Shown: positions 1-17,418, counted from the stretch's first letter. The stretch: DNA of 64,000 bases from Candidatus Levyibacteriota bacterium (GCA_963722305.1 CAVRKE010000002.1:447649-511648); one strand, 5' to 3'. The notes: generated by a model not told the origin, from the sequence alone. A program made the numbers and translations.

Positions 1-905
1 TGATAGTAAATGTGTCCTTTATGCTTTTCAGGCGTTACGGACAGCCCACAATCATTACATCGCAACAATCCTCTGTAAATATATGGTAAACCAGCAAACT
101 TAAAGTGTTTTTTATTAAAACTTTCTTTTACTTTCTGCACTTGGTCAAATAAATTTTGGGTAATAATTGGTTGATATTTATGCGGATAAAATTTCTTATT
201 CCACTTCATTATTCCATAATAAAATGTATCCTTGAGGATTTTGTCAGTCCAGCCATGCGACCATTCTACGCCATACTCTTCTTTTAGCTTTTTGCGTAAT
301 AAATCCATTGAAAAACTACCCATTGCATACCATTCGTAGGCTTTTTGAACAATACGAGAAGCAAACTCGTCAACCACAATTTCTGTTTTATCCTTACCTA
401 TGGAAACACGCTTATATCCAAATGATGGTCTGCTTGGATAAGTGCCCATTCTAAGCATTTGCTCTTGTGCCCGTTTTACATTATCACTAATTGCGTCAGA
501 GTAGTATTTAGCAAGTCCAAGGCTCATGCTAAAAGCAAACTTTTCTGTGGCTGAAAGATGACTGTTAATGACTTGTCCATCTGAAACAAAATGTAACTCT
601 ATCTCGTCTTTTAGAGCCTTATTGTAGAGTGCGGGAACCCGTTTATCAAAAATGTTGCGGGATAATCTATCTACTTTGTCAAAGCAAACGGCTATTTTTT
701 CTTTTTGCTCAAGAACAAATTCAAGGATGCCATCAAAATCACTACGCAGGGTTTTATACGCACTTTCATCAAAGCTAAATTCTTTGATAATTTCAAAGCC
801 TTTATTTTGACAATACTTTTTCATCCTAGTCGTTTGAGCAGGTAACGAATTGTTCGCTTCTTTTTGTTCTTCTGTTGAAACTCTAGCTATAATTATCGCT
901 TTCAT
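1..905 (-). CDS. Large serine recombinase (resolvase/invertase catalytic domain plus recombinase and zinc-ribbon domains). Partial: the C-terminus runs off the left edge of the window.
   Basis: Reverse-strand translation from about 905 gives MKAIIIARVSTEEQ... then ...DKVDRLSRN... (serine-recombinase catalytic motifs), and later CNDCG (zinc ribbon). Not in the ORF track because it has no stop inside the window. Confidence 0.8.
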   Translation of the reverse strand, partial: MKAIIIARVSTEEQKEANNSLPAQTTRMKKYCQNKGFEIIKEFSFDESAYKTLRSDFDGILEFVLEQKEKIAVCFDKVDRLSRNIFDKRVPALYNKALKDEIELHFVSDGQVINSHLSATEKFAFSMSLGLAKYYSDAISDNVKRAQEQMLRMGTYPSRPSFGYKRVSIGKDKTEIVVDEFASRIVQKAYEWYAMGSFSMDLLRKKLKEEYGVEWSHGWTDKILKDTFYYGIMKWNKKFYPHKYQPIITQNLFDQVQKVKESFNKKHFKFAGLPYIYRGLLRCNDCGLSVTPEKHKGHIYY

Positions 906-907
906 AT

Positions 908-1636
908 TTATAAATTGCACTCTTTTTGGTAATAAGGGTTTGAAGAAACCCAACTTCTTAAATTACTCCTCACATAATTGTTCCAACATGATTGGTCTGG
1001 GTCATTTGGACATGCTTGGTCAGCGGAAACATTTAATTGCAATAAGTAATCTATAATTTGATAAGCACTATTTAAGTTCGGATTTTGACTAACCCTTAAT
1101 GTAATTGATTTCCATTCTTCTTGGTTTAAGTTAGCTAAGAAAATTACCTGAGAATTAAATGCAGCAACTTCATTTTCCAAGCAAGAAGGAGCTGGTGTTC
1201 CTTCAAGTGCTTTAAGGAAAAATGTTGCATGTCTTAATTCATGCACTAGCAACGAGCCAGTTAATATGTCATCATAATTTTTGTAAGTATCATCAACATA
1301 AATACGAATATCGTTTGCATCAGATGTGTTATCAAATGCGAAATAACCTTCCGCACCATTCATCTCGCTGTGTGGTTTATAAATTAAATGGAAACAATTT
1401 GCAAAATGTCCTTTTGGGGCTTGTGGGGAATTAGGTGCTCCAATATCTTTTCCTTCAGCTAAACTTAGCGCCCTAAGTAATTCAGGAGGATTATTATAAG
1501 GCGTTGTTCTAGTGCATAAGCCAATATCTTGCTTAGGTGTTTGATTATTAGTTGATGGAGCCTGTCCTTTGATGAAATTATATCCAAGCAATATCAGTAA
1601 AATACATATTATGATGTAAGGTAATTTATTTTTCAT
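908..1636 (-). CDS. Secreted protein with an HExxH motif (LLVHELRHA). Putative zinc metallopeptidase.
   Basis: N-terminal hydrophobic signal/anchor (LPYIIICILLILLG) and an HELRH motif. No family assignment possible by eye. Confidence 0.4.
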   Translation of the reverse strand: MKNKLPYIIICILLILLGYNFIKGQAPSTNNQTPKQDIGLCTRTTPYNNPPELLRALSLAEGKDIGAPNSPQAPKGHFANCFHLIYKPHSEMNGAEGYFAFDNTSDANDIRIYVDDTYKNYDDILTGSLLVHELRHATFFLKALEGTPAPSCLENEVAAFNSQVIFLANLNQEEWKSITLRVSQNPNLNSAYQIIDYLLQLNVSADQACPNDPDQSCWNNYVRSNLRSWVSSNPYYQKECNL

Positions 1637-1818
1637 TTATGTTTAATAAAATTGTCTAAGTTTTCCTTCTTAATCCTGTATTGTTTTCCTGCCTTATGTG
1701 ATTTTAGTTTGCCAGCTTGTATCCAACGATACACAGTAAGGTAAGCAACCTTTAACATCTTTGAGACCTCTTCAATTGAGTAATACTGGTCTTCTAGCAT
1801 ATTAGTTATATTTATCAT
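1633..1818 (-). CDS. Excisionase-family helix-turn-helix DNA-binding protein (Xis/AlpA-like).
   Basis: 61 aa containing ...LTVYRWIQAGKLKSHKAGKQYRIKKENLDNF..., the typical excisionase/MerR-type HTH pattern. Sits next to the recombinase module. Confidence 0.5.
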   Translation of the reverse strand: MINITNMLEDQYYSIEEVSKMLKVAYLTVYRWIQAGKLKSHKAGKQYRIKKENLDNFIKHK

Positions 1819-2941
1819 TGTTTATCATTTCGTCTTGAAAGTCAACTAGCTTTAATAGCTCAAAACTAGTCAGATTTTTACGAATAACATCAAAAGGGCT
1901 TTTTGTAAACGGCACTTTGACACTTTTAGCTTCCGAAAACAACCTATACCAACTTCTATTGCTGTATTTCCCAAACATTACCCGAAGCTCACGAGGAGTA
2001 ACGGCATCAAGGGCGTTTTTGAGACCAAAAAGCTGAATTATACGCTTTGTTCCCAATTTTGGATTGCTAATTATAAGGTCTGCGAGCAGGGCTTTTGGGT
2101 TAGATACTTTGTAGTCAAGTAGCTTAGGTCTTTGTGCTTCTAGTTCATCTAGATAATGCAAGAGAACCTGTTGGGATATATTTGAACTAAATAGATTTTG
2201 AAAAGTAAGTTCCTTTTCTATTTTAAGCGTCTTAAATAGTTGTCTAATTTTTTGGCGATTATTAAGCCTGACTTCCATTCTCAACACTTCTAATCTTTTC
2301 TTTTCAATAAATTTTTCAAAAAGGTTAAGTTGTAAAGCATTGTCTTTTTCTATTGCTCGCTTATCGCTTTTCTTAGCCATTTCTAAGTCTTTAATTTTAT
2401 CGTAAAAAGCTACTTCATAAGAGTTGCTATGCCATTTATAACTATGCCCGTCATTACGATAATCTGTTTGATTTATATCAAGAGCAAGCGGGATATTTGC
2501 CTCTTTAATTTTACTTATCAAGTAATGAGGCGTTGAGCCATCGGTAAGTGGTATATTTTTGGAATAATGAACTGTAGATACTGGAGCATTTATAAACAGC
2601 TCCCAAAAAACTGAAATACCCATTTCCTTTAGCTTTTTTTGTAATAATTCTGCTACCTGTTTAAAGTCTTCGTCTTTTAACTCATCAAAATTATTTCCAT
2701 AGACTAATTTGGGTAGCGATAACTCTATAGACAGGGTTGGCTCATAGCGTCCTGATGTATTATATCGTTTTGTTAAAGTCAATCTAGGCTTGTAGACACC
2801 ATTTTTCAACTCTGTTTTTGTTGGATTTTGAACAAGCATAAAATAGCCTCGTGAGGCGTTCATTTTCTCTTTTTGAAATAAGTCTAATTTATTAACTAAA
2901 AACATATTCTTATCTAGCGTTAGCTTCATCGTATCTATCAT
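1802..2941 (-). CDS. Hypothetical 379-aa protein. A replication initiation role is possible but not established.
   Basis: Long ORF with K/E-rich coiled regions. Assignment rests on position between Xis and SpoVG only. No motif recognised. Confidence 0.25.
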   Translation of the reverse strand: MIDTMKLTLDKNMFLVNKLDLFQKEKMNASRGYFMLVQNPTKTELKNGVYKPRLTLTKRYNTSGRYEPTLSIELSLPKLVYGNNFDELKDEDFKQVAELLQKKLKEMGISVFWELFINAPVSTVHYSKNIPLTDGSTPHYLISKIKEANIPLALDINQTDYRNDGHSYKWHSNSYEVAFYDKIKDLEMAKKSDKRAIEKDNALQLNLFEKFIEKKRLEVLRMEVRLNNRQKIRQLFKTLKIEKELTFQNLFSSNISQQVLLHYLDELEAQRPKLLDYKVSNPKALLADLIISNPKLGTKRIIQLFGLKNALDAVTPRELRVMFGKYSNRSWYRLFSEAKSVKVPFTKSPFDVIRKNLTSFELLKLVDFQDEMINNDKYN

Positions 2942-3206
2942 AATTTTTCATTACATCTTCAAACTTACTGATGACCTCCTTTTCTATGCTTTCCGCAAAG
3001 GATTTATTTATAGGATGAAATATATTGATATTTCTTAACCCCACTTTTTTAGTAGGATAAACGAGCCTATAACCACCTTCGGGTCTTGTTATAATGCCAA
3101 TAGACCCTAAGTAAAGATTGTTGCTTAATACAAAACTTGCAAAACCGATTAAGCCGTTATTTGGCTTAACTGGTATTATTTGTATTTCAGTTATCATGTT
3201 TTTCAT
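2910..3206 (-). CDS. spoVG: SpoVG-family protein (septation/regulatory RNA- and DNA-binding protein).
   Basis: 98 aa containing IQIIPVKPNNGLIGFASFVLSNNLYLGSIGIITRPEGGYRLVYPTKK...NIFHPINKSFAESIEKEVI. This matches the SpoVG pattern (...IHDIKVIEGENGLFIAMPS...DIAHPIN...). Confidence 0.6.
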   Translation of the reverse strand: MKNMITEIQIIPVKPNNGLIGFASFVLSNNLYLGSIGIITRPEGGYRLVYPTKKVGLRNINIFHPINKSFAESIEKEVISKFEDVMKNYDRYDEANAR

Positions 3207-3428
3207 TTGTTTTTGTTTTATTTAACCGTTGGTCAATTTGTATAAGAATGGAAAATAAATCAGTTAGTCGTTTTAGTTCGTCCGAAGGCAGAATACGCCC
3301 GTCCTCATTAGGCTGTATTTGTTTCTCGTTTATTAATTTTGTTACTTCGCTTGTTTCCATTAAGCAAAGTTTATTAAATGAGGCTCGTATCCAACTGTAT
3401 ACGCTCCGTATACGGAAAATGAAGCTAT

Positions 3429-4592
3429 TTAAAAGGTTCTTTTATAAAGCGTGTTTATTTTTGCCTGATTGAAGTCGTATTGTAAGAAGTCGGTAACGCC
3501 AATTTTAGACAAGCTATTACTAATACCCCTGCAAACCTCGTAATAAGTATTCTTTGGGTCTTTTACTTCCCCTGTTGTCGCACCTTCCAATTCGCTTATA
3601 ACCTCTGAGTAGTAAATACCTTTTGTTTTTTTCAAAAGCAATTTAAGCACGGCAAGTTTTCTCGTATCTTTTTTGAATTTTGCTTGCTTTCCGTTTATAA
3701 TAAGAAGTATAGCTTCATCATCAAAAGTAAAAGAAATAGTAGGTTTGTTAGTTTTTGTTGGTTTTTGTTGGTCATTTAACGCAAAACCACTTAACATAAT
3801 CTCTTTTGTATGATTAAAAATCCGTTGAAGATGCACTTTATACTCGCCAACATCAAACTCTTTCAAATAACGCTTAGTGTCAGTTTTATAGCTCATTACC
3901 TCATTTAATTCTTCAAAAAGCATATTAAGACCCATTGCTTCAAATACCTCTTTCTTTTTCAATTTATCATCTCTTAATTTTTCGTAATCCTTATAAAGTC
4001 CGTAAAAAGATACCAATTTATCCCAACTATGCCAAACTTTAGTAGGCAATAGTCTTTGAATGTATTTTCTTTCTTCTTCCAAGAGGTCGTAGCTTGGGGA
4101 AAAAGTCCATCGGACTATAATGCCTTGACTATCTTTATCGCCAAATTTAGACATAAAATCTTTCAGTATAGGGTCATCGGAAGGTATGCTCATAAGAGCG
4201 TGTAATATGCTTCCGTATCGTCCAGCAATTGGGCCCGCACTAGAATTGATACTGCCGTCTTCTTTTTCGTAGGCTTCAAAATGTTGTAATCCTTCTTGAA
4301 AAAAATGATTTTGTTGGAGCTTCTCGTTGTTTTTAACTTGTAGCAGGATTTTATATGCTTGTCTCATTTCTTTTTTTGCAAGCTCGCCAAGTTCCGTTTC
4401 TTTTTTAGTGTCTTTTTCTTTCAGTTTATTAAAAACTTTAATAACAGGACTTAGCCTTTCGTCTTTATCATAGATTTCAACATATTCAAATAAAGTCAAG
4501 AAAAAAGGTTTTGGTATAACCATTGGTATAGCACGGTCTACGAGGGATTGAAGTTTATCTATTAATAATTGGTATTGGTCTGTTTTTTCCAT
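3429..4592 (-). CDS. Hypothetical protein (387 aa), cargo of the element.
   Basis: Uninterrupted ORF. No recognisable motif. Confidence 0.4.
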   Translation of the reverse strand: MEKTDQYQLLIDKLQSLVDRAIPMVIPKPFFLTLFEYVEIYDKDERLSPVIKVFNKLKEKDTKKETELGELAKKEMRQAYKILLQVKNNEKLQQNHFFQEGLQHFEAYEKEDGSINSSAGPIAGRYGSILHALMSIPSDDPILKDFMSKFGDKDSQGIIVRWTFSPSYDLLEEERKYIQRLLPTKVWHSWDKLVSFYGLYKDYEKLRDDKLKKKEVFEAMGLNMLFEELNEVMSYKTDTKRYLKEFDVGEYKVHLQRIFNHTKEIMLSGFALNDQQKPTKTNKPTISFTFDDEAILLIINGKQAKFKKDTRKLAVLKLLLKKTKGIYYSEVISELEGATTGEVKDPKNTYYEVCRGISNSLSKIGVTDFLQYDFNQAKINTLYKRTF

Positions 4593-4684
4593 TTCATTAC
4601 ATCTTGAAAACAGGTCTATCCTATCAAAAAAAGGTGCTTATATAAAGTGTCATACTTGAACAAGGAGTATAATAGATTTGCTCT

Positions 4685-5128
4685 ATGGGTAAGAAAGAAC
4701 TAAAACAAGAACATCCTGCAAAATCAAACAACACGCAAAACATATTCTTCATAGCTATAATCGGGATACTTTTAGTCCTTGTAGCTTATTTCTTCGGTAA
4801 ATCTCAAACTCCTACAACATTGGATAGTAATACTAGTCCAACTATCTTTTCTACCCCTAGTCCAACCGATACACCAACCCCTGAACCAATAAAAAACACT
4901 TTTAATACGCAAGCTTGCATCAATAATGCCGACTACGTAGACCAAAGTTGTATCAACAGTTGCACTAATCAAGCAAACATTCAATTGCAAAACTGCCCAA
5001 AGGATAATGTGGATAATCTTAGAAATTGTGGAAATTCAATTGAACTATGGCATCAAAGTTGCTTGGATGATTGTCTAAGCACAGCTAAAATCGCAATCAA
5101 TAATTGCAGATTGGGTATTTCCCCATAA
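4685..5128 (+). CDS. Small secreted or membrane-anchored cysteine-rich protein with a Thr/Pro-rich linker.
   Basis: N-terminal TM helix (IFFIAIIGILLVLVAYFF), a PT-rich linker and 10 Cys in the C-terminal 80 aa. A terminator lies about 150 bp downstream. Confidence 0.45.
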   Translation: MGKKELKQEHPAKSNNTQNIFFIAIIGILLVLVAYFFGKSQTPTTLDSNTSPTIFSTPSPTDTPTPEPIKNTFNTQACINNADYVDQSCINSCTNQANIQLQNCPKDNVDNLRNCGNSIELWHQSCLDDCLSTAKIAINNCRLGISP

Positions 5129-5277
5129 ACAAAACATAAGTTTTCATTAGCTTAGATAATAATCAGGCATAAACAGGTTGTAACTGAAAAGTCTCAAAGA
5201 CCGTTTGGATATTCTGTAAGCTAAACCCAAACTCTATTTTTTGGTTACTAAACATGTTTACTAGGGGGAGCATAAAA

Positions 5278-5303
5278 GACCACCCGAAAGAGGTGGTTTT
5301 TTT
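5278..5303 (+). terminator. Rho-independent terminator (ACCACC-loop-GGTGGT followed by T7).
   Basis: Sequence aaaagACCACCcgaaagaGGTGGTttttttt. The identical sequence recurs at 7659-7684. Confidence 0.7.
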
Positions 5304-5454
5304 ATGCTCTGACAGAATATGAATCGTGCTTTAGCTCGAATCTCGAGCATATCAATGTGAGATCCTGAGCGAAGCCGAAGGACTAGTCGCGAAGCAATTA
5401 GCGCTTAATATAACCTCTTCTTTACTTCTTTCTAAATTGTGAGATGATTTAGTC

Positions 5455-6135
5455 ATGGAAGAGAAAATTAAGAAAGCCAACCCAACGCTGTATAGATATT
5501 TATTTACAGTCACCACTTTTTCAAAACTTCTAGCATTAGGTCTTTTTATCATCCTTCCCTTCTTAGGGTTTTATTTAGGAATGCACTATCAACAAAAAAT
5601 AACCACAGTTACCCCAGTTATATCGGAAGTTCAGAAAATTCCAACACCAACTCCTACTTTAATTGATACTACAAACTGGAAAATATATACAAATACTGTT
5701 GCCGGATATTCCTTAAAATATCCGTCGGGTTGGCAGCTTTTGACCGATGCCGATAACTATCCTACGAACATTATATTAACAAGCCCAGATTATCGGGGAA
5801 ATTCGCCATGGACAGGAGCTAGAATAGAACTATCAGCTTACGGCACAACAACCTCGACAAATGTTAAAGACGTACTCAATGCAGAAGTAGAATCAGGCTC
5901 CCTTAGCGCTTATAAGAATTATAAAGAACTTCAAATAAACGGGGTAAGGGCAATCCAATACGATTTTATTTTTCCTGTTAATAATGGCTTACTTTTTACC
6001 TCAACTGACGTTAGCTTTATTGAGAATAAGAGAATGTATACGTTTAGTCTATCATACTATCCAAGCATAGAACCAAAAAATAAATATTTGGCGACTTTTC
6101 AAAATATTATTTCTACTTTTAGGTTGGCCCAGTAA
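5455..6135 (+). CDS. Membrane-anchored protein with a PT-rich linker and a C-terminal globular domain. Hypothetical. Copy 1.
   Basis: 226 aa with an N-terminal TM (LLALGLFIILPFLGFYLG) and a TPTPT linker. 100% identical to the ORF at 7836-8516. Confidence 0.5.
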   Translation: MEEKIKKANPTLYRYLFTVTTFSKLLALGLFIILPFLGFYLGMHYQQKITTVTPVISEVQKIPTPTPTLIDTTNWKIYTNTVAGYSLKYPSGWQLLTDADNYPTNIILTSPDYRGNSPWTGARIELSAYGTTTSTNVKDVLNAEVESGSLSAYKNYKELQINGVRAIQYDFIFPVNNGLLFTSTDVSFIENKRMYTFSLSYYPSIEPKNKYLATFQNIISTFRLAQ

Positions 6136-6292
6136 AATCAGGATTTAATTGTAGTTTCTTTATTTCTTCCCACCTCTGCCTTAATTCCCCAATATAGATT
6201 AGATTCTGGAAGGATTCCATTGCCTTTGCGGTTATAATAATCTCAGGACTGGGGAGCAAATTAGCCTCGGAAACTTCTGATATAATCAGTTT

Positions 6293-7150
6293 ATGCAATG
6301 GATTTTGCTTACACTTCTAAATGTTTTTGGAAATGGTAGCGTAATATTCTTTACAAAATCAGCAATTAAGAATACTAAATTTGGTTATGCTGGCGTAATG
6401 TTTATTACACTATTTTTTGCTGTAGTTTTGTATCTTCCAATATTTATTTTTAGCTACATAACGCATCCTGTTATTTCATCAAGTATAGATGGTTATTATT
6501 TTCTTTTAGCCTCAATAATACTTACGATATTTAATTTTTTTATTTATTTTCATGCAATCGTTATTAACGATCTTTCAGTTTTTGGACCATTAGATAGTGC
6601 TCGTCCATTTTTCGTAATTTTGTTCTCGTTGCTGTTATTAGGTCAAGTTCCTACGCATTATATTGTTTTTGGATCTATCCTTATTTTTCTAGGAGCAATT
6701 ATCCTCACCTTTTCTAAAAAATTTCTTACAGAAGCTGGTAATTTTCATAAAACATTTTTTGTGATTTTATCAACAGGACTTTTTGGTTTTATATCAATTA
6801 TTGATAAGAAAGCACTTGCCTCCATAGATCCAATAAAATACGTGTTCTTTGTTTTGCTTAGTGTCTGTATCGCAAGCGGAATTATATATTTTAGTAAAAC
6901 AAAACATATAATATTTAAACAATTTTTATCTTTAAAATTATTGGCAATGGGTGTTTTATGGGTAATTGGCTATATTGGAATTATGAGCGCTGTAAAAATC
7001 TCAACACCAAATCAAGTTATTCCTCTTCAAATGACAAGATCCTTATACCTTTCATTTTTAGGCTTTGCTTTTTTAGGAGAAAAAGGGTATTTAAGGAAAA
7101 TTATTGCAGCCGTAGTGATGTTGATTGGAGTTTATTTTATTGTCCAATAG
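6293..7150 (+). CDS. EamA/DMT-superfamily transporter (10-TM permease).
   Basis: 285 aa, about 10 hydrophobic helices arranged as two repeated halves, as is typical for EamA. Promoter-module copy immediately upstream. Confidence 0.5.
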   Translation: MQWILLTLLNVFGNGSVIFFTKSAIKNTKFGYAGVMFITLFFAVVLYLPIFIFSYITHPVISSSIDGYYFLLASIILTIFNFFIYFHAIVINDLSVFGPLDSARPFFVILFSLLLLGQVPTHYIVFGSILIFLGAIILTFSKKFLTEAGNFHKTFFVILSTGLFGFISIIDKKALASIDPIKYVFFVLLSVCIASGIIYFSKTKHIIFKQFLSLKLLAMGVLWVIGYIGIMSAVKISTPNQVIPLQMTRSLYLSFLGFAFLGEKGYLRKIIAAVVMLIGVYFIVQ

Positions 7151-7201
7151 GTTCTAACGTCGTCTACTGCTCGGAGCAAATTAGCCTCGGAATGATATAA
7201 T
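7149..7201 (+). promoter_or_regulatory. Reference copy of the conserved promoter-proximal module: AGGTTCTAACGTCGTCtactgCTCGGAGCaaattaGCCTCggaaTGATATAAT.
   Basis: Extended -10 TGnTATAAT lies 7 nt upstream of the ATG at 7208. Related copies occur at about 6241-6290, 7622-7650, 8622-8670, 13109-13165, 17330-17413, 18301-18345, 21698-21790, 23829-23888, 14945-15030 and 21079-21140. Confidence 0.55.
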
Positions 7202-7207
7202 CTTCTC

Positions 7208-7621
7208 ATGAAATTATCTTCTAATGTAAAATCCTTTCCTAAATTCTTTTCAAGATTATTTCTAACAAAAAACATTGGTGGCATTACTCTTTCTCCCAAT
7301 ATTTTTTTAAAATATGAAATACTTGCAGATTTACAAAAGGAAAATCAAAATCCTAAATACATTGCCTTATTAAATCATGAGCAGGAACATCTTAAAAGAC
7401 AAAGGGAAATGGGTTCAGTAAAGTTTTTTATTAAATATGCTTTATTTCCAAGATTTAGATTTAGAGAAGAAATAATTGCAAACAAAAAGACCGCAAAAGT
7501 CTTAAAAGAGCATGGTATTCCATTTGACTCTAATTTATATGCAAAGTATTTGTCAGGACCAATGTATTTTTGGTGTGTTTCTTATAAGGAAGCAAAGAAA
7601 GAATTAGATAAGTTGGTGTAG
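7208..7621 (+). CDS. Hypothetical protein (137 aa) with an HEQEH motif. Possible small metallo-hydrolase.
   Basis: ...ALLNHEQEHLKRQ... No firm family call. Confidence 0.3.
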   Translation: MKLSSNVKSFPKFFSRLFLTKNIGGITLSPNIFLKYEILADLQKENQNPKYIALLNHEQEHLKRQREMGSVKFFIKYALFPRFRFREEIIANKKTAKVLKEHGIPFDSNLYAKYLSGPMYFWCVSYKEAKKELDKLV

Positions 7622-7658
7622 GTAGGTTCTAACATCGTCTATCCCTCGGAGCATAAAA

Positions 7659-7684
7659 GACCACCCGAAAGAGGTGGTTTTTTT
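7659..7684 (+). terminator. Rho-independent terminator (copy 2, inside repeat copy 2).
   Basis: Identical to 5278-5303. Lies 38 bp after the stop of the 7208-7621 gene. Confidence 0.7.
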
Positions 7685-7835
7685 ATGCTCTGACAGAATA
7701 TGAATCGTGCTTTAGCTCGAATCTCGAGCATATCAATGTGAGATCCTGAGCGAAGCCGAAGGACTAGTCGCGAAGCAATTAGCGCTTAATATAACCTCTT
7801 CTTTACTTCTTTCTAAATTGTGAGATGATTTAGTC

Positions 7836-8516
7836 ATGGAAGAGAAAATTAAGAAAGCCAACCCAACGCTGTATAGATATTTATTTACAGTCACCACTTT
7901 TTCAAAACTTCTAGCATTAGGTCTTTTTATCATCCTTCCCTTCTTAGGGTTTTATTTAGGAATGCACTATCAACAAAAAATAACCACAGTTACCCCAGTT
8001 ATATCGGAAGTTCAGAAAATTCCAACACCAACTCCTACTTTAATTGATACTACAAACTGGAAAATATATACAAATACTGTTGCCGGATATTCCTTAAAAT
8101 ATCCGTCGGGTTGGCAGCTTTTGACCGATGCCGATAACTATCCTACGAACATTATATTAACAAGCCCAGATTATCGGGGAAATTCGCCATGGACAGGAGC
8201 TAGAATAGAACTATCAGCTTACGGCACAACAACCTCGACAAATGTTAAAGACGTACTCAATGCAGAAGTAGAATCAGGCTCCCTTAGCGCTTATAAGAAT
8301 TATAAAGAACTTCAAATAAACGGGGTAAGGGCAATCCAATACGATTTTATTTTTCCTGTTAATAATGGCTTACTTTTTACCTCAACTGACGTTAGCTTTA
8401 TTGAGAATAAGAGAATGTATACGTTTAGTCTATCATACTATCCAAGCATAGAACCAAAAAATAAATATTTGGCGACTTTTCAAAATATTATTTCTACTTT
8501 TAGGTTGGCCCAGTAA
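7836..8516 (+). CDS. Membrane-anchored PT-linker protein, copy 2 (identical to 5455-6135).
   Basis: 100% identity at protein and DNA level. Confidence 0.5.
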   Translation: MEEKIKKANPTLYRYLFTVTTFSKLLALGLFIILPFLGFYLGMHYQQKITTVTPVISEVQKIPTPTPTLIDTTNWKIYTNTVAGYSLKYPSGWQLLTDADNYPTNIILTSPDYRGNSPWTGARIELSAYGTTTSTNVKDVLNAEVESGSLSAYKNYKELQINGVRAIQYDFIFPVNNGLLFTSTDVSFIENKRMYTFSLSYYPSIEPKNKYLATFQNIISTFRLAQ

Positions 8517-8690
8517 AATCAGGATTTAATTGTAGTTTCTTTATTTCTTCCCACCTCTGCCTTAATTCCCCAATATAGATTAGATTCTGGAAGGATTCCA
8601 TTGCCTTTGCGGTTATAATAATCTCAGGACTGGGGAGCAAATTAGCCTCAATTATGATATAATCCTTCAACTATGGGTAGACGAGAAACG

Positions 8691-9930
8691 GATACCGTTG
8701 CAAAAACGGTCACCTGAATAGCCTCAAGAGTTCTCCAATTTCCTCAGGGTTTTGATACCGTTGCAAAAACGGTCACCTGAATAGCCTCAAGAGTTCTCCA
8801 ATTTCCTCAGGGTTTTTCATGGTCTGTTGAAGTGAAGATGTTCCATTTAACATTCTGAATTTAGCGGTACAATCGGTAAAGACTTTCAGTCTTCGTCTTA
8901 AGAAATATGCATTTAACCACATATCAGCGTGTTTAAATGATTCAAAACCTTTCAGCGGCTTTACTCTGGCTTCTAAGTGCGAGTTGTAACTTTCAATCAG
9001 ATTAGTAGTGGTGGGAATAGTTCTGTTATTCATGTAGGTGTTTAATTGCGGTAATCTCCTTTGCATGTCTAAAAGGATCGCAGAAAGTAATGAATCATGT
9101 TTGTAGGTATTATACAGTTTTGCGGCTAATGTGAGGAATTCATCTTCCGCTCTTTTGTGAGAGAACAAGTCTTCTATTCTCTGCATAAAAGGAAGATATG
9201 TTGTATCAGTTCTGACTCCAAGAGTTGTCCTGATATTCTCCTTGTAGTGATTATGGCAAAGTTGAGTAAGCACTTTAGGATATACTGACACACAGGCATC
9301 ATAGATATTGGCATTGTCATCAGAAACAATGGCCTGTAAAGGATAATTCAATAATCGTAAGGAGTTGAAAAACGTCCGGCAAGTTTGGTAGCTTTCAGAT
9401 TGGGAGAAAATATATGTTGGGATATCATGAGTAAGGTAATCAATCCCATACAAAACCGGAATCTTTCTTTCGTATCCCTTCACTTTAATATATTTTCCAT
9501 CAACCACTAATATCCCACAGAACTTACTGCAGTATTTTCTTGTTACGTCTGCTAAATGAGGGAGCTCTCCTAATTCCTTAAGGCAGCGTCTGTAGGCAGT
9601 AGATGGGTCAATTTGGTAGGTTTTTCCTAAGGAGCGGAAAGATACTCCGGTCAGATGAGCAAACAGCAATTTTCCAGTGGAGTTTTTCTTTATCCTATTT
9701 ATCTGAAACCATTTATTACACTTTCTACAAACATATTTAATTTTTCCTCTTCTTACTCCTTTACGGATAGTATTTTGGCTTTCGCAGTGGGGACATCTGT
9801 AAGATGCTGTTTTTTTTCACTCAAGGAGTATATCATCAACAAAGACAATTCTCACTGAGTGGAATTACTGCTTTTGTTTGTTAGAACAATCTAAATACCC
9901 TCTTTCAGGTGACCAAAATGCAACGGTCTC
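8691..9930 (-). mobile_element. IS1595/IS1-like insertion sequence. 27-bp imperfect terminal inverted repeats GA(T/G)ACCGTTGCA(AAAAC/TTTTG)GTCACCTGA and a 9-bp target-site duplication CGAGAAACG.
   Basis: The TSD CGAGAAACG sits at 8682-8690 and 9931-9939. Inverted repeats at 8691-8717 and 9904-9930. The left end is tandemly duplicated as two 63-bp units (8691-8753 and 8754-8816). Single transposase ORF; its stop codon lies inside the inverted repeat. Confidence 0.7.
8773..9820 (-). CDS. DDE transposase with an N-terminal zinc-ribbon (IS1595-family / IS1-related).
   Basis: The track ORF (TTG start at 9669) extends in frame upstream to a GTG at about 9820. That adds VKKTASYRCPHCESQNTIRKGVRRGKIKYVCRKCNKWFQ (CxxC...CxxC zinc ribbon). 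DDE core: VVDGKYIKVKG...AIVSDDNANI...LIESYNSHLEARVKPLKGFESF. Confidence 0.65.
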
Positions 9931-9963
9931 CGAGAAACGATAACTAGCGCTCCTGTTCCTTCT

Positions 9964-10611
9964 TTGTTTGATCCTATTCCAAAAAAATTAATACCAGATG
10001 AGGAATGGATAAGATCAACTTTTGATGGCAGCATTGGTAACGATGGAATTACTATAATCTTAAATCCAATAACCGGTGCTCCAATTAGAACAATCTTTGT
10101 TGATCTTTTCGGTCAGGCGGGCAAAATAGCTTACGAACCATTACAAAGAGCCAAATGGGCTTCGCCTAACAGGGATATTCAGCCAGGAACGCCAGAGTAT
10201 GATAAACTGAATGCGATTGCGGAAGCTGTAAGAGAAAAATGGCTAGCATGGAGAGCTGTCAATCCAAGACACGGGCCGATGAGGGAATTTAGAGTTCCCC
10301 ATTCTCCGAAACTACCCAGATTAGTTCTAATTGAGCCAGAAATCCTGCCTGAAATAAGAAAGTCCCACAGGGATGAACATAAGAAAAAAGGAAAGGCCGT
10401 GGCATCAGTCAGCATGCCAAAGGCGGTAGGGAAAAATATTTTTGAAAGTGTGGTTGCCCCCCAAATGGGATACCCAAGCTATACCAGTCCTGCGCTTATT
10501 GAACAAACTGATAGAGAAAATGCAGCTATCTATAGAAAACTTGAATTAAGACGGGCAACAATGGCAAGAAAAAGAGAAAGAATAAGAGCTAAACAACAAA
10601 AACATCCTTGA
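9964..10611 (+). CDS. Hypothetical protein (215 aa) with a basic C-terminus. Separated from its upstream promoter module by the IS1595-like insertion. Its 3' end forms the left target flank of IS110-A.
   Basis: ORF with higher GC than its surroundings. TTG start in the track, so the true start is uncertain. Confidence 0.35.
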   Translation: MFDPIPKKLIPDEEWIRSTFDGSIGNDGITIILNPITGAPIRTIFVDLFGQAGKIAYEPLQRAKWASPNRDIQPGTPEYDKLNAIAEAVREKWLAWRAVNPRHGPMREFRVPHSPKLPRLVLIEPEILPEIRKSHRDEHKKKGKAVASVSMPKAVGKNIFESVVAPQMGYPSYTSPALIEQTDRENAAIYRKLELRRATMARKRERIRAKQQKHP

Positions 10612-10618
10612 AATAAGT

Positions 10619-10724
10619 TTGTATCATTCCCCTAGAGAAAGGTATACTGAAAACGGAGAGCCAGCGAAAATAGGTTTCGGGATAGTATTTTTACTATGCC
10701 CACTGTTAGAGCAACTGGTCTTCC
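10619..10724 (+). ncRNA. Candidate bridge/seek RNA of IS110-A, 5' part (interrupted by IS3 at 10725).
   Basis: Contains CGAAAATAGGTT (compare the left target flank GAAATAAGT^T) and CTGTTAGAGC (GTTAGA is the reverse complement of the right target flank TCTAAC). Position and length match IS110-type left-end ncRNAs. Confidence 0.4.
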
Positions 10725-10778
10725 TATAATGGACCCCATAATCTGCACAGTCACCTTAGACTAAGATAGAATAGTTCT

Positions 10779-11075
10779 ATGGATCAAAAAATACGCAGAA
10801 TTCATCCACCGGCATTTAAAGCCAGAGTTGCTCTGGAGGCAATTAAGGAACAAAAAACAATTGCGGAGCTGTCAAGTATGTACGGTGTACATTCAACCCA
10901 AATAACGAAATGGAAACGCCGGGCGTTGGAGATTCTCTCGCAAGGGTTTTCAGAACATCTTATTCAACGGAAACGGGATGACCGTGAGCTGGTACAGGAA
11001 TTGTATCGGCAAATAGGAAGATTAAAAGTCGAAGTAGACTTTCTTAAAAAAAAGATGGGCATCTTCGACGAGTAG
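10779..11075 (+). CDS. IS3-family transposase OrfA (HTH plus leucine zipper).
   Basis: 98 aa: ...FKARVALEAIKEQKTIAELSSMYGVHSTQITKWKRR...LKVEVDFLKKKMGIF. Slippery TTAAAAAAAAG at about 11045-11055 near its 3' end. Confidence 0.85.
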   Translation: MDQKIRRIHPPAFKARVALEAIKEQKTIAELSSMYGVHSTQITKWKRRALEILSQGFSEHLIQRKRDDRELVQELYRQIGRLKVEVDFLKKKMGIFDE

Positions 11076-11178
11076 GGATATCCTTACTCCCGGAGAAATT
11101 GCTCTGCACATTAACAAAACAGAAAGCGTATTACCAAAGAGTATACGGGCTGATCTTCTGGATATTTCCAGATCAAGT

Positions 11179-11916
11179 TTGTACTATCAGCCAAGACCGG
11201 TTAAACCCGAGGCACTCATTTTAATGAACAGAATTGATGAGGTATATACTGCCCACCCTTTTTATGGTTCAAGACGTATGGCAAAAGAGGTTGGTGTTAA
11301 CAGAAAACAGGCACAACGCCTGATGCGTGAAATGGGCTATGAGGCATTGTATCCGAAGCCTAATTTGAGTAAACCCGATAAACAACACATGTTCTATCCG
11401 TATTTACTCAAAGGAGTAGTTGCAGGATATCCAAATCATATCTGGGGCACAGATATTACGTATATTCGGATGAAACATGGGTTTGTATATTTAACTGCCT
11501 TTCTTGATTGGTTTACCAGATTTGTTGTTTCCTGGAAGCTCTCAATTACCCTTGAAACAGACTTTTGTTTTGATGCTGCAACTGAAGCAATTGAGAAATT
11601 CGGAAGACCAACCATTATTAATGAAGATCAGGGATCACAAAATACCGATCATCTGATGACAGATCTCTGGGAAAATCACAATGTCAAAATCAGCATGGAC
11701 TCACGGGGACGGGCACTGGACAATATCTTCACCGAGAGGTTATGGAGGAGTGTTAAATATGAAGAGGTATACTTAAAAGAATACGCTACTGTTTTGGAAG
11801 CAAAAGAAAACATTGAAAACTATTTTTACTTTTACAATTATGAAAGAAAACACCAATCGCTTAATTACAGAACACCGGCTGAAATATATTTTGGAAAGGA
11901 GGAAAACTTAGTCTAA
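11179..11916 (+). CDS. IS3-family transposase OrfB (rve DDE integrase core). Expected to be expressed as an OrfAB fusion through a -1 frameshift.
   Basis: HIWGTDITYIRMKHGFVYLTAFLDWFTRFVVSW...INEDQGSQNTDH...ERLWRSVKYEEVY...YNYERKHQSLNYRTPAEIY (D,D,E triad with the K/R signature). Confidence 0.85.
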   Translation: MYYQPRPVKPEALILMNRIDEVYTAHPFYGSRRMAKEVGVNRKQAQRLMREMGYEALYPKPNLSKPDKQHMFYPYLLKGVVAGYPNHIWGTDITYIRMKHGFVYLTAFLDWFTRFVVSWKLSITLETDFCFDAATEAIEKFGRPTIINEDQGSQNTDHLMTDLWENHNVKISMDSRGRALDNIFTERLWRSVKYEEVYLKEYATVLEAKENIENYFYFYNYERKHQSLNYRTPAEIYFGKEENLV

Positions 11917-11956
11917 GTTTAGCCGTTTTACTGTGTTGACAATGGGGTCCACCTTA

Positions 11957-12108
11957 TCCCGGTAAGTAGAAAGCGATCTATTCCTGGTTGTGCTTGAAGG
12001 CACACATAACCAACAAGCATATCGTAGTACTTCCTAAGGCAAGACTTTTAAGCTCTCCTTTTCTTTCTTCTCTTTCTCTTCTTTCTTTAAGGCTTAAAAG
12101 AAAAGGAG
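11957..12108 (+). ncRNA. Candidate bridge/seek RNA of IS110-A, 3' part, together with an RBS-sequestering hairpin upstream of the transposase start.
   Basis: Contains GCGATCTATTCCTGGTTG (it mirrors the element's own right end GATTCCTGGTC). The hairpin CTCCTTTTCTTT...AAAGAAAAGGAG overlaps the AGGAGG Shine-Dalgarno. Confidence 0.4.
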
Positions 12109-13056
12109 GTGATGAAAATGATAGTTGTAGGCGTAGATGTCTCAAAAGACACCCTTGTTGCTGTGGCAATTGATAAATCAATACGAATAAAGCATTCATT
12201 TACCGTTAAGAATAACAAGGAAAGTATCGATAAGTGGTTAAATGCTCTTCCGTACAAAAAGATGCTGCTCTCTTGTGAGGCAACTGCCGAATACCACAGG
12301 GTACTTGCACTTTTGGCTCTTTCTTCTAAAATACCATTGAGGTTATTAAATCCCATTGTGACTAAGCAATATACCAAAGCAACTGTTCGAAAGAGAAAAA
12401 CTGACCCTCAAGACGCATTAACCATTGCTAAGCTGGCTCTTGCCGGAGAAGGAAGGCTGATAAGTACCCAAACTTTTCACATTGCCAAAACCCATGAGAG
12501 AACCGCCATAAAGCTAACACACATGAAACAGCGTCTTTTACTAATACAACAGCACGTACAAGAGGTAGATCCGGATGATACAGCTTCTTTTGAGGAGTTG
12601 CAGGTCTGTATTGATACCATAGAACAGTCAATCAAAGCATTTAGGAAGAAAGCAGAAGAAGAGGTTGATTCAAAACTTGTTAAACTGCTTTGCTCTATAC
12701 CGGGAGTGGGAGAAACAATAGCAACGGTACTTCTTGCGGAAATCGGAGATATTAATCAGTTCAAATCAGATAAAGCCCTCGTTGCTTATGCGGGATTGGA
12801 TCCAAAGGTCAAACAATCAGGAGGAAGATTACACCATAATACCCATTTAACTAAAAGAGGCTCTCCTTACCTTAGACAGATGCTCTATACAGGAGCTTCT
12901 ATTGCACAACGGCATGATAAGAAACTTAAGGCGTATTACGAGAAGAAGAGAGCTGAGGGAAAGAGGTACAAAGAAGCAACCATTGCGGTATCAAGAAAAC
13001 TGCTCAATAGAGTATATGCAGTTTTAAAAAGGCAGACACCTTATATACCTGGATGA
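12109..13056 (+). CDS. IS110-family transposase (DEDD RuvC-like N-terminal domain plus C-terminal Tnp domain), element A.
   Basis: 315 aa: MIVVGVDVSKDT... (DEDD N-terminal domain) ...SIPGVGETIATVLLAEIGDINQF...GLDPKVKQSGG...HLTKRGSPYLR (IS110/IS1111 C-terminal signature). About 55% identical to the 13730-14677 protein. Confidence 0.85.
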   Translation: MMKMIVVGVDVSKDTLVAVAIDKSIRIKHSFTVKNNKESIDKWLNALPYKKMLLSCEATAEYHRVLALLALSSKIPLRLLNPIVTKQYTKATVRKRKTDPQDALTIAKLALAGEGRLISTQTFHIAKTHERTAIKLTHMKQRLLLIQQHVQEVDPDDTASFEELQVCIDTIEQSIKAFRKKAEEEVDSKLVKLLCSIPGVGETIATVLLAEIGDINQFKSDKALVAYAGLDPKVKQSGGRLHHNTHLTKRGSPYLRQMLYTGASIAQRHDKKLKAYYEKKRAEGKRYKEATIAVSRKLLNRVYAVLKRQTPYIPG

Positions 13057-13170
13057 GATACATCGGTAACACTTTGAGACCAGGGGTCTTGACAAAAGAT
13101 TCCTGGTCTCTAACGGCATCTATCTCTCGGAGCTGCGTAGCCTCAAAATTGCTTCTGATATAATCATATA

Positions 13171-13320
13171 ATGAAAAAACTTTTTACCTCAGAAAGAATA
13201 ATTGACTTTACTGCTTTAAACGATATTAAGAAAGATACGGAGATAACCGTTGATTATAATTACGGAAATCCAAAAGACAATAGTCCATTATGGTTTAAAG
13301 TGATTCCACCATCTAAGTAA
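13171..13320 (+). CDS. Short ORF (49 aa) that resembles the C-terminal end of a SET-domain protein (...TEITVDYNYG...). Possible gene remnant.
   Basis: Not in the ORF track because it is under 60 aa. Sits directly downstream of a promoter-module copy. Could be a fragment or spurious. Confidence 0.2.
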   Translation: MKKLFTSERIIDFTALNDIKKDTEITVDYNYGNPKDNSPLWFKVIPPSK

Positions 13321-13429
13321 AGTTTTATTGTCATATTTTGCCCCACTCGATAACTATCTTCAGAGATAGTATAATGTTAAGAATGAGAGGAGGTATAAGT
13401 AGATTTAATCAATAAGTCTATAAAACACT

Positions 13430-13627
13430 ATGAACGGAACAATTAAAACAAAAACAGATAGAGGGTTTGGATTTATTTCTCGTGAAGGAGAAGCAAAGGA
13501 TCTTTTTTTTCACTCGTCAGATTTAAGCGGTGTTACTTTCGATGAGCTCAAAGAAGGAGCAGCCGTTACGTTTGATGTTGTGGAAAATGAAAAGGGACCA
13601 AGGGCAAAAAACGTAAAACTTGCCTAA
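13430..13627 (+). CDS. Cold-shock protein (CspA family, S1-like OB fold).
   Basis: 65 aa: GTIKTKTDRGFGFISREGEAKDLFFHSSDL...FDVVENEKGPRAKNV (RNP1/RNP2 motifs). Confidence 0.85.
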   Translation: MNGTIKTKTDRGFGFISREGEAKDLFFHSSDLSGVTFDELKEGAAVTFDVVENEKGPRAKNVKLA

Positions 13628-13729
13628 TAAAATTTGCGAAGTAATATAAAGAGTCTTCAAAGCCGTCTTAAGTGCAAGTTAAACAGGTTCTAGACCTGGA
13701 ATCTTTTGTCAAGACCCCAGGCCCGAAAC

Positions 13730-14677
13730 TCATATTGCTTTGACAACGTAGGGCGTTTGTCTTTTCCACACAGCGTAAGTACGATAGAGTAGTTTTCTTG
13801 CAACAGCAACAGTTGCTTCTTTGTAAAACTTACCTTCGCCTCTTTTCTTCTCGTAATATGTTTTAAGTTCCATATCATATCGCTGTGCAATACTGGCTGC
13901 AAGAAAAACTGTTCGTCGTAAATACGGTGACCCCCTTTTAGTCAGATGAGTATTATGATGGAGTCCAATGCCACTTTGTTTTACCCTGGGATCAAGACCA
14001 CAAAAGGCAATTAAACAATCTCCACTGGGAAATCTGGTGATATCCCCAATTTCCGCAATTAATGTAGTTGCAATAGTTGTTCCGACACCGGGAATACTCA
14101 TTAACAGCGTGTGTAACTTTGCATCAACAGTTTTTTCCGCAAAACTCTTGAATACTTTTTGTGATTTTTGCAACTGCTGTTGACAGAGTTCTAACTGTTT
14201 TACCAATGATTCATCCATAGCAATCAACTGTAATTGTTGCTGCATTAGAATAAGCATCTGTTCCATTTGGTTAAGTTTTACTGCGGTACGTACAGCCGGT
14301 TTGCCTTGAGTAAACATGGTTTTTGTAAGTAATGTTCCTTCTCCTTGCCCAACAAGTTTTGCAACAACAAAGGCATCAGATAAATCAGTTTTTCTTTTTC
14401 TAACTGTTGCCCTAGTGAATTGTTTTGTCACTATTGGATTAAGTAAGCGAAAAGTTATCCCTCTATCCAAACAGGCAAAAGCAAGTATCTGATGATAATA
14501 TCCGGTTGCTTCGGAACCAATAACTATTCTTTTCCATTTCCCGGTAACTCTTTCCAAGAATTGTTCGATTGCGCCTTTGGTATTTTCTATGAAGAATTGT
14601 TCTTTGACACGAGATGACCGATCGATCCTAACGCCAACAAGACTATCTTTGGCCACATCGATACCAATAACTTGCAT
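13730..14677 (-). CDS. IS110-family transposase, element B.
   Basis: 315 aa: MQVIGIDVAKDS...SIPGVGTTIATTLIAEIGDITRF...GLDPRVKQSGIGLHHNTHLTKRGSPYLRR. Confidence 0.85.
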   Translation of the reverse strand: MQVIGIDVAKDSLVGVRIDRSSRVKEQFFIENTKGAIEQFLERVTGKWKRIVIGSEATGYYHQILAFACLDRGITFRLLNPIVTKQFTRATVRKRKTDLSDAFVVAKLVGQGEGTLLTKTMFTQGKPAVRTAVKLNQMEQMLILMQQQLQLIAMDESLVKQLELCQQQLQKSQKVFKSFAEKTVDAKLHTLLMSIPGVGTTIATTLIAEIGDITRFPSGDCLIAFCGLDPRVKQSGIGLHHNTHLTKRGSPYLRRTVFLAASIAQRYDMELKTYYEKKRGEGKFYKEATVAVARKLLYRTYAVWKRQTPYVVKAI

Positions 14678-14944
14678 AATTTTTCACCTCCTTCCTTTGC
14701 TCTTAATTAAAGAAGGAAGAGAAAGAGAAGGAAGAAATGGAGTTTGCCAAAAAGGTCTCCCGGTGATAATATATCGGTAGGCTTGTTTGTGATCAGCGGC
14801 TAAAACCCGCAACCTGGAATCGATCGCTTACATTATCGGGGAGACCAGATGCTAGAACGGTGAGCACTTTCTCAAGAAGTCTCAAACGTCGTCACGCTGG
14901 CTCTCCGATTTCTATTCTAATCCTTCCTTAAGGTAATGATACAA
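14678..14944 (-). ncRNA. Candidate bridge/seek guide RNA in the left end of IS110-B (267 nt, upstream of the transposase).
   Basis: In transposase orientation it contains GACGACGTT (identical to the left target flank GACGACGT^T), CCGTTCTAGC (GTTCTA is the reverse complement of the right target flank TAGAAC) and GATTCCAGGT (identical to the element's own right end). It ends in an RBS-occluding hairpin CTTCCTT...AAGGAAG. Plus-strand positions: 14885-14893, 14851-14858 and 14812-14821. Confidence 0.5.
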
Positions 14945-15121
14945 ACGTCGTCCCGATGAACACGTTACTCAGGACTTCGTTGCTGCTCAATATCAGGGGA
15001 GGCTCAAATCTCATGCGCCGCTTCAAAGAAGCTAGTCCTCTTGGAGGAGTGAAGAATAAGCCTCTTATTGAAAATTTTAGTTGCTATTTCTCCTAAAATA
15101 GATTATCGTTTATTTAATTAA

Positions 15122-17239: not shown

Positions 17240-17329
17240 GCTTTCTTTCTTCGGTTAATTGCAGTTGATAAAGTTTTATACGCCATTATTATTAGTATTA
17301 GGAAGAATAGAAAGAGTTTGAATTAAACC

Positions 17330-17413
17330 GGCTCTAACGTCCCTCTTTCGCTTCGCTCAGGACTATAGTATCAAGGGGAACTGCGTAGCCTCAAAAATAC
17401 ATCTGGTATAATT
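17330..17413 (+). promoter_or_regulatory. Promoter-module copy (GGCTCTAACGTCC...CTCAGGACT...GGGGAAC...GCCTC...TGGTATAAT) upstream of the aldo-keto reductase gene.
   Basis: An extended -10 TGGTATAAT lies 6 nt before the ATG at 17419. Shares all the blocks of the 7149-7201 module. Confidence 0.5.
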
Positions 17414-17418
17414 ACCTT

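Follow-up and report, generated by a model that had tools for sequence, protein, structure and literature searches.

A perfect 1-kb direct repeat within an array of gene cassettes in a Candidatus Levyibacteriota genome

The repeat and its surroundings

The 64,000-nucleotide stretch of Candidatus Levyibacteriota bacterium DNA analyzed here (hereafter, the window; GCA_963722305.1, CAVRKE010000002.1:447649-511648) is part of a 679,204-bp contig and carries the same 1,002-bp sequence twice on its plus strand, as R1 (5267-6268) and R2 (7648-8649), with genes for an EamA transporter and for a protein with an HEQEH motif between the two copies. A preliminary description, made from the sequence alone, had called this direct repeat perfect, and direct script comparison, with which a repeat search and self-blastn concur, bears this out: the copies are 100% identical, no extension by even one base is possible on either side, and the flanks diverge at once, both on the left (...TTTACTAGGG| before R1 and ...TCTATCCCTC| before R2) and on the right (|GGAAACTTCTGATATAAT after R1 and |AATTATGATATAAT after R2). 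The self-blastn alignment of the copies reaches 6287/8664 at 99.5% because TGATATAAT is present in both right flanks. Both copies begin with the letters GGAGCA and end with GGAGCAAATTAGCCTC. As the repeat period is 2,381 bp and the repeated part is 1,002 bp, the arrangement is not a simple tandem duplication; a head-to-tail duplication with one novel joint, in which the repeat is at least as long as the period, is excluded by the spacer of 1,379 bp (6269-7647), which is unique. Also excluded is an insertion sequence (IS) or composite transposon, as the unit codes only for a 226-aa anchored protein and is without terminal inverted repeats.

The two copies occupy positions 1 and 4 of an array that extends from 5267 to ~21.1 kb in the order R, EamA, HEQEH, R, X and further cassettes. 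Its units are co-oriented and mostly single-gene, each with its own TGnTATAAT box, and they end either in a 33-nt pseudo-tRNA-Asn 3' end (type A) or in a tail of ~115 nt (type B), the joins falling at GGAGC(A); related genomes have arrays of this kind that open right at the tRNA-Asn(GTT) gene. Cassette R comprises 986 bp (GGAGCA, terminator hairpin, leader, 226-aa gene and type-B tail; 5267-6252 in R1), and R1 is this cassette plus 16 nt (GGAGCAAATTAGCCTC) of the next one. The identity continues for 16 nt past R because the EamA, HEQEH and X cassettes all open with GGAGCAAATTAGCCTC; given this shared start of the next units, both ends of the duplication are therefore unit boundaries. GGAGCA, found at both repeat ends, is the junction common to every cassette. 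Downstream of R2, the order R ... CSD ... rpoD is as in the relatives L003 and L004.

Each copy holds the terminator, structured leader and complete 226-aa gene that had been ascribed to it. A 19-bp hairpin followed by a T-run (5267-5310 and again 7648-7691, + strand) was found by folding, with GGAGCA as the stem base; the terminator scan scored the minus strand, and this start-of-unit hairpin looks like a bidirectional terminator. The leader (5311-5454, ~145 nt), taken together with the hairpin, folds better than shuffled sequences (z = -2.9), owing mostly to the hairpin. Rfam gave no gathering-level match in the window, and its sole match in 5100-8900 was a chance-level small RNA. One leader segment, CCTGAGCGAAGCCGAAGGACTAG (5360-5395), resembles in inverted form the sequence CTTCGCTTCGCTCAGGACTA (17345-17368), which belongs to a degenerate junction before an aldo/keto reductase cassette. 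The gene (5455-6135, second copy 7836-8516, +) is an intact open reading frame (ORF) with an N-terminal hydrophobic anchor, and it is followed by the type-B cassette end (6143-6257, second copy 8524-8638, +; ...TTCCCACCTCTGCCTTAATTCCCC...GGTTATAATAATCTCAGGACTGGGGAGC), the repeat tail terminating in ...CTCAGGACTGGGGAGCAAATTAGCCTC.

The 226-aa protein has only weak matches in Pfam, to PsbP_2 (23.8 bits, cut-off 27) and PsbP (19.5, cut-off 23.5), and its closest named homologue comes from a Patescibacteria metagenome-assembled genome (MAG). In its family (P0002-P0033; L070 from 6205), an N-terminal stretch of ~70 aa is almost invariant (MEEKIKQANPTLHRYLFTVTTFSKLLA...LPFLGFYLGMQYQQK...SEVQK) and is fused to many C-terminal domains that are mutually unrelated, an architecture that suggests, at the level of sequence, modular anchored surface proteins.

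Between the copies, the EamA cassette (6253-7172, +) consists of GGAGCAAATTAGCCTC, a TGATATAAT box, the EamA gene (6293-7150) and a type-A junction motif (7145-7177, +; AATAGGTTCTAACGTCGTCTACTGCTCGGAGC) whose TAG is the EamA stop codon; a full copy of the recurring intergenic module named in the preliminary description lies at 7149-7200. The HEQEH cassette (7173-7647, +) is built in the same order, with GGAGCAAATTAGCCTC, a TGATATAAT box, an ORF (7208-7621) and a type-A motif (7621-7652), the GGAGC of which is the start of R2. The left junction of the second copy had been taken for the 5' half of the module, and AGGTTCTAACATCGTCTATCCCTCGGAGC is indeed found at 7624-7652. After R2, cassette X (start, 8634-8690, +) opens with GGAGCAAATTAGCCTC and a TGATATAAT box, and its 14-codon ORF is cut by an IS256-like remnant. 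The EamA protein (285 aa) matches PF00892 with 75.9 bits over two stretches (E = 5e-21), both EamA domains scoring above the gathering threshold. Its nearest homologue (79% aa identity, contig L011) is surrounded by housekeeping genes and has no motif beside it, and the gene that follows there is unrelated to HEQEH. The HEQEH (HExxH) motif is carried by a 137-aa ORF in the spacer, whose product has no match in Pfam, NCBIfam or PDB sequences.

The junctions were also sought in an independent k=31 Logan assembly of run ERR11594402, which is possibly from the same sample as the genome and whose graph gives no copy number. Three of its contigs correspond to 690-5272 (L010), 5267-6260 (L001) and 6239-7677 (L002), the last holding the spacer plus exactly 30 nt of the repeat at each end, and the junctions of the left flank with R, of R with EamA and of HEQEH with R are therefore present in reads. 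L010 stops 6 nt into the repeat (5272, after GGAGCA) and L001 stops 8 nt before the repeat end (6260, after GGAGCAAA), at positions that differ from those predicted by the k=31 graph; these odd stops could be further junction variants in the reads.

Junction sites and relatives of the cassettes

The type-A motif has a consensus of ~33 nt, AAAyAGGTTCTAACrTCGTCyATyCnnCGGAGC, and the pattern was found in Microgenomates and other MAGs and also in at least 120 metagenome stretches, a collection in which ~1 match is expected by chance according to a rough estimate with a guessed collection size. The 5' half of the module as first described (AGGTTCTAACrTCGTCTAyCyCTCGGAGC) is present at gene ends in relatives too. 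The motif follows a co-oriented gene in 93 cases versus 18, at a median of 14 nt past the stop codon, and in about one fifth of cases its TAG doubles as the stop codon. The upstream AAAyAGGT is conserved though it lies outside the bases fixed by the search pattern. A scan of viral contigs for the motif gave zero matches. A scan of genome contigs, among which the source genome is absent, for the module GGAGC..TAGCCTC..TGRTATAAT gave 11, of which at least those in L016, L020 and L024 are genuine; that in L022 abuts a tRNA-Asn, and the remaining matches are random-looking. Co-oriented cassettes each ending in the site were found in the window (5267-21140), in L016, where five motifs in 8 kb lie between BrnT/CopG and YafQ toxin-antitoxin pairs and small enzymes, and in L070, where a tRNA-Asn is followed by eight single-gene units.

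Among the tRNAs in motif-bearing loci, 12 of 13 are tRNA-Asn(GTT), all of them upstream of the motifs and co-oriented. When aligned with the 3' 30 nt of the L070 tRNA-Asn, the type-A motif scores z = 4.8, with none of 2,000 shuffles as good, the shared letters being AAA-AGGTTCTA...GTCC...GC; with the L004 tRNA-Asn the alignment is not significant. The last letters of the motif, GGAGC, are in relatives also those that close tRNA-Asn(GTT) at its 3' end, and genuine tRNA-Asn 3' fragments fill the motif slot in L013, L061 and L128. A search of Rfam around the L013 tRNA fragment found nothing.

The preliminary description had placed both repeat junctions in a promoter module. A recurring intergenic module it remains, but not primarily a promoter: the blocks after GGAGC (AAATTAGCCTC or TGCGTAGCCTC) stand at a variable distance of 8-15 nt from the TGnTATAAT box, so GGAGC..TAGCCTC is ruled out as a -35 element, and the 5' half of the module is better described as a widespread boundary motif that is like a tRNA-Asn 3' end and is associated with gene 3' ends. 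Nor is it the sole recurring end, as the ~115-nt 3' tail of R itself, the type-B element, is a second generic cassette end, which recurs in at least seven other contexts after genes of different kinds (L049, L070 three times, L074, L076, L108). There is little sign that the type-B tail is a structured or tRNA-like RNA, its RNAalifold fold being weak and without compensatory pairs and its alignment to the motif scoring z = -1.1. An attC-like hairpin in the type-A motif was rejected after 11 copies had been folded on both strands and showed no common structure; the TTAGCCTC box, a possible partner of GGTTCTAA, is missing from most motif copies.

In the closest relatives (91% nt identity), R is single and lies immediately downstream of tRNA-Asn(GTT), followed by a 73-aa gene, HIT and CSD genes and, further on, rpoD. 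The 226-aa proteins of these relatives, whose contigs come from peat, wood and other metagenomes, are 92% and 91% identical to that of the window, and no EamA or HEQEH gene lies beside R in the contigs. The backbone of the window keeps the same order, with R, CSD (13415-13663) and rpoD (28128-29204). The first 126 nt of the unit (5267-5392) are without counterpart in the relatives, yet identical between the two copies. In L003, a serine-recombinase element (recombinase 8403-9929) is located exactly between the tRNA and R, with the junction ...CA|GGGAGCA; this element differs from the one at the left of the window, the two recombinases being only 25% identical. In L004, downstream of the tRNA-Asn, 9917-9935 reads GGAGCA-AGGCTAATTT; the 10-mer AAATTAGCCT, which in window junctions comes after GGAGC (compare 6253-6268), is present there as its exact reverse complement.

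Cassettes appear in different company from one array to the next. At GGAGC, left partners (type A, type B or the tRNA-Asn end) pair freely with right partners (xTAGCCTC, the R-family leader and others), and cassette proteins sharing at least 90% identity have, from one array to another, neither their left nor their right neighbours in common. Near-identical contigs part at motif edges or at GGAGC, as seen for L003/L004, L004/L005 (99.1% identical), L122/L124 and the window/L013, and contig breaks near motifs are twice as frequent as expected. In a groundwater contig (L033, 8385-9809), a 683-bp cassette is present as a tandem duplicate, 99.6% identical, with the type-A motif at its bounds. In L013, block X follows a tRNA-Asn 3' fragment rather than R, and the break is at GGAGCA. 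L013 is probably a fold-back or error-rich long-read contig, and evidence drawn from it needs care: window 15.7-19.4 kb is represented in it twice, in opposite orientations (1-3404 and 3716-8625), the identity being only 94-96% and many of the ORFs broken. The evidence for shuffling comes from cassettes other than R, and direct evidence for movement of R is thin.

Origin of the repeat

On balance, and with modest confidence, we read the repeat as one gene cassette that stands twice in a cassette array after a very recent cassette-level duplication by recombination at junction sites. A copy of R would have been joined to a second GGAGC junction, very recently because the copies show zero divergence, and recombination would have been limited to the junction sites. 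Two routes may be envisaged. The first would be site-specific: recombination between two junctions would release a cassette circle, which would then enter the array at the junction nearest the tRNA, in the style of integron reshuffling. The second would consist of two short-homology exchanges, the left one over GGAGCA (6 bp) and the right one over 16 bp. If insertion took place at the tRNA-proximal head, as it does in integrons and where elements accrete at tRNA genes, R1 would be the new copy and R2 the ancestral one. Of the three origins offered in the preliminary description, two survive, namely duplication at a very recent date and movement of a cassette from one module copy to another, and gene conversion has become unlikely, there being no homology on the left and a single copy in relatives.

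Several findings weigh against this reading. No recombinase is linked to the arrays: when the ORFs of 131 motif loci (628 kb) were searched by phmmer, a serine recombinase and IS110, IS256 and IS3 sequences as queries gave no relevant match, tyrosine recombinases not being part of this screen. The genes adjoining tRNA-Asn in L030, L034 and L004 encode rpoD/dnaG, a radical-SAM protein and an unknown protein, none of them a recombinase; at array heads, recombinases were seen solely in two full-size elements, in the window and in L003, and both are large serine recombinases. The motif is without a conserved hairpin, and the integron mechanism is therefore inapplicable. Conservation of GGAGC, TCTAAC and TCGTC in the motif alignment was imposed by the search pattern. 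There is no tRNA in the window, and we infer that the tRNA-Asn anchor of this genome lies to its left. Relatives show R at essentially one genomic position, directly after tRNA-Asn, and the placement in different module copies that mobility would imply is met with only in L009, where R lies behind the type-B tail of another cassette. No cassette presence/absence indels were found between contigs at least 95% identical. The 6-bp homology at the left junction fits a microhomology-mediated event as well as a site-specific one, and the two-copy state of R in real DNA rests on assembly.

That the segment was duplicated recently in an ordinary way, by template switching or by two illegitimate or short-homology exchanges at repeated junctions and without any dedicated system, strikes us as rather unlikely. 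R, EamA and HEQEH could have been duplicated in tandem at the 6-bp GGAGCA, after which the second EamA-HEQEH block would have been deleted between the 16-bp repeats, and the motif would merely be a conserved 3' untranslated, terminator-like or repetitive extragenic palindromic (REP)-like element that offers homology. The junction homologies, 6 bp and 16 bp, are short but real; the region is highly plastic, for it has taken up five IS insertions and contains a further duplicate, of 1.28 kb, and an inversion isomer mediated by IS3; the lack of a recombinase linked to the arrays is as this explanation would have it; and the L033 duplicate is a plain tandem one, as expected of unequal crossover between junction repeats of ~100 nt. 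Such a history, however, takes either two separate events or a double template switch to arrive at copies without divergence, and the ends of the duplication fall exactly on cassette boundaries on both sides. Efficient recombination needs a minimum of roughly 25-30 bp, and a 33-nt motif and a 6-bp core are poor substrates for exchange of the RecA type. It would also leave unexplained why arrays start at tRNA-Asn (12/13) and why ends and starts are mixed across distant genomes.

That the second copy is an assembly or population artefact we consider improbable. Here there would be one true R, and strain variants (left flank-R-X and ...HEQEH-R...) would have been joined, or a 2,381-bp circle of R, EamA and HEQEH threaded into the contig, with perfect identity possibly the result of consensus polishing of near-identical copies. 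The k=31 graph (left flank to R, R through the cargo to R, R to X) fits one copy plus a circle equally well, the stops of L010 and L001 (5272, 6260) hint at heterogeneity, and L013, which looks error-rich and folded back, joins X to other sequence. On the other hand, a 2.4-kb circle without a replication gene is implausible as a replicon, and the spacer needs a place: the shortest path that takes in each of the four junctions observed is left flank-R-cargo-R-X. Assemblers of the De Bruijn type, moreover, collapse 1-kb repeats rather than duplicate them, and if the 679-kb contig was built from long reads, as the contig_NNNNN naming of its sister L013 in ENA suggests, single reads would span the 3.4 kb concerned. 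Gene conversion that homogenised two older, diverged 226-aa-family cassettes already flanking EamA-HEQEH is very improbable indeed, since, even though the family has many paralogues that are almost the same in their 5' leader and N-terminus and share a type-B tail that might have served as seed, the identity sets in abruptly at GGAGCA and nothing similar remains to the left of it (the left homology that conversion needs is absent), the first 126 nt (5267-5392) are the same in both copies yet missing from relatives, and the closest relatives have a single copy. Were one of these rivals true, the repeat would be an ordinary recent duplication in an IS-rich hotspot.

The arrays resemble integron arrays in several ways: the units are co-oriented, mostly single-gene and include toxin-antitoxin pairs, a repeated site follows each of them, often over the stop codon, one cassette may occur twice per array, neighbours differ between genomes, and IS110/IS1111-family elements insert into the repeated site, as IS1111 elements are known to do in attC (PMC11187229). 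In contrast to integrons, the site is a 33-nt primary-sequence motif without the imperfect hairpin of attC, the cassettes have their own TGnTATAAT boxes, and the anchor is the 3' end of a tRNA-Asn and not attI. No IntI or attI was seen. Window ORFs from 1-26 kb and most of 26-40 kb were compared with Pfam (40-64 kb lay outside the scan), and the only recombination-type domains in these ORFs were Mutator, rve, IS110-DEDD and serine recombinase.

Tandem accretion at tRNA 3' ends is also known, for example for integrative and conjugative elements (ICE) and cis-mobilizable elements (CIME) in streptococci and for islands at asn-tRNA genes. As in such accretion, the arrays are attached to a single tRNA at its 3' end, have copies or pieces of this end as separators between units, and carry complete integrative elements with recombinases at the array head (the window, L003), but they differ in their units, which are of 0.5-1.5 kb, single-gene and without integrases, and in their separator, which is a derived motif common to distant lineages and not the host's own tRNA end. 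The identical 1-kb repeats around a 1.4-kb cargo, finally, are like amplifiable direct-repeat units. RecA-dependent exchange between direct repeats leads to deletion or amplification of the cargo, so the arrangement is, as had been pointed out, a substrate for loss or amplification of EamA/HEQEH, and it predicts that the genes of the EamA transporter and of the HExxH protein are unstable in copy number.

Elements of the IS110 family, which are guided by a bridge or seek RNA, provide a further parallel where they target repeated intergenic sites: IS621 and ISPpu9/10 do so in REP sequences, and IS1111 does so in attC (PMC11208160, PMC11187229, bioRxiv 10.1101/2025.01.17.633520). In the window, IS110-family element #1 (12109-13104, transposase 12109-13056, +; Pfam DEDD_Tnp_IS110 and Transposase_20) abuts TCTAACGGCATCTATCTCTCGGAGC with its right end, at a junction motif, and its left end is broken by an IS3 copy. 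Element #2 (13677-14955, -) has a second copy (18576-19379 plus 20611-21089) that is split by the other IS3 copy with an overlap of ~3-4 bp. A third insertion of element #2 is in L013 (12718-13990), and all three interrupt the type-A motif at one and the same position, GTTCTA^ACGTCGTCC (after AAAyAG); removing the copy from L013 restores a perfect motif; the motif thus appears to be the specific target of this element. The repeat boundaries (GGAGC), on the contrary, are 15-20 nt from the IS110 point GTTCTA^ACGTCGTC, and R is without IS110-like ends; IS110 therefore looks like a parasite of the motif rather than the agent of the duplication.

A broader proposal, which we advance tentatively and regard as possible, is that genomes of the candidate phyla radiation (CPR) carry an undescribed platform, in which promoter-bearing single-gene cassettes would be accreted at the 3' end of tRNA-Asn, bounded by conserved pseudo-tRNA-Asn 3' motifs with crossover at GGAGC, exchanged between lineages and mobilised in trans by a recombinase whose gene lies elsewhere than beside the array. 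The repeat would then be a fresh re-insertion, and IS110 elements would have evolved to target the site as IS1111 elements target attC. In a limited literature search, no account was found that connects Patescibacteria with integron-like arrays or with islands at tRNA-Asn. Little is understood of the ways in which CPR/Patescibacteria, whose genomes are tiny, gain and rearrange accessory genes; a conserved, searchable junction motif would be a handle on a flexible gene pool of surface proteins, transporters, toxin-antitoxin pairs and cell-wall enzymes, and would lead toward a recombination system that may be new and toward a target that IS110 uses in nature. If recombination at the junctions is ongoing, three joints are predicted: ...CTCAGGACTGG-GGAGCA-TAAAAGACCACC in an R circle, ...TTTACTAGGG-GGAGCA-AATTAGCCTCGGAAAC where R1 is absent, and ...TCTATCCCTC-GGAGCA-AATTAGCCTCAATTATG where R2 is absent.

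Flanking genes, further junctions and insertion sequences

The left flank (1-5266, -) encodes a large serine recombinase (3-905, running off the window edge), an HTH_17 gene, SpoVG (2910-3206) and ORFs without assigned function, and it ends in ...ACTAGGG|GGAGCA. The N-terminal 301 aa of the recombinase are encoded in the window and match Pfam Resolvase, Recombinase and Zn_ribbon_recom; from its gene content, 1-5266 is probably an integrative element. The ends of the two serine-recombinase elements (the window and L003) were tried as type-A motifs and rejected: they are alike by eye, with z = 0.6 and 1.4 against shuffles. To the right of ~26 kb lie the housekeeping genes coaBC, rpoD, dnaG, purA, purB, guaA and guaB, and among such genes, outside the array, is a 354-aa transposase with an rve domain (36525-37589, -).

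Two further junctions lie within the array. That at 13105-13164 (+) has the remainder of a type-A motif, GGAGCTGCGTAGCCTC and a TGATATAAT box, and opens a cassette of a 48-aa ORF and the CSD gene. The degenerate junction at 17330-17412 (+) reads …TCTAACGTCC…CTCAGGAC…GGGGAAC, then TGCGTAGCCTC and TGGTATAAT, and opens the aldo/keto reductase cassette (17419-18285).

Mobile elements crowd the window between 8.7 and 21 kb, where an IS256-like remnant, two IS3 copies and three IS110-family copies are found. Directly after the start of cassette X, 8691-8816 is a perfect tandem duplication of 63 bp (two copies). The duplicated sequence spans the last 14 codons, the stop codon and the downstream hairpin of the IS256-like (Mutator) transposase gene, whose ORF (8773-9669, -) matches Pfam Transposase_mut over positions 161-352 of 379 only. 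An IS3-family element (10725-11957, +; Pfam rve and HTH_Tnp_1) has an identical inverted copy at 19379-20611; the two are 100% identical and 7.4 kb apart. L013 (7393-8625) has the post-inversion arrangement, and both inversion isomers may exist.

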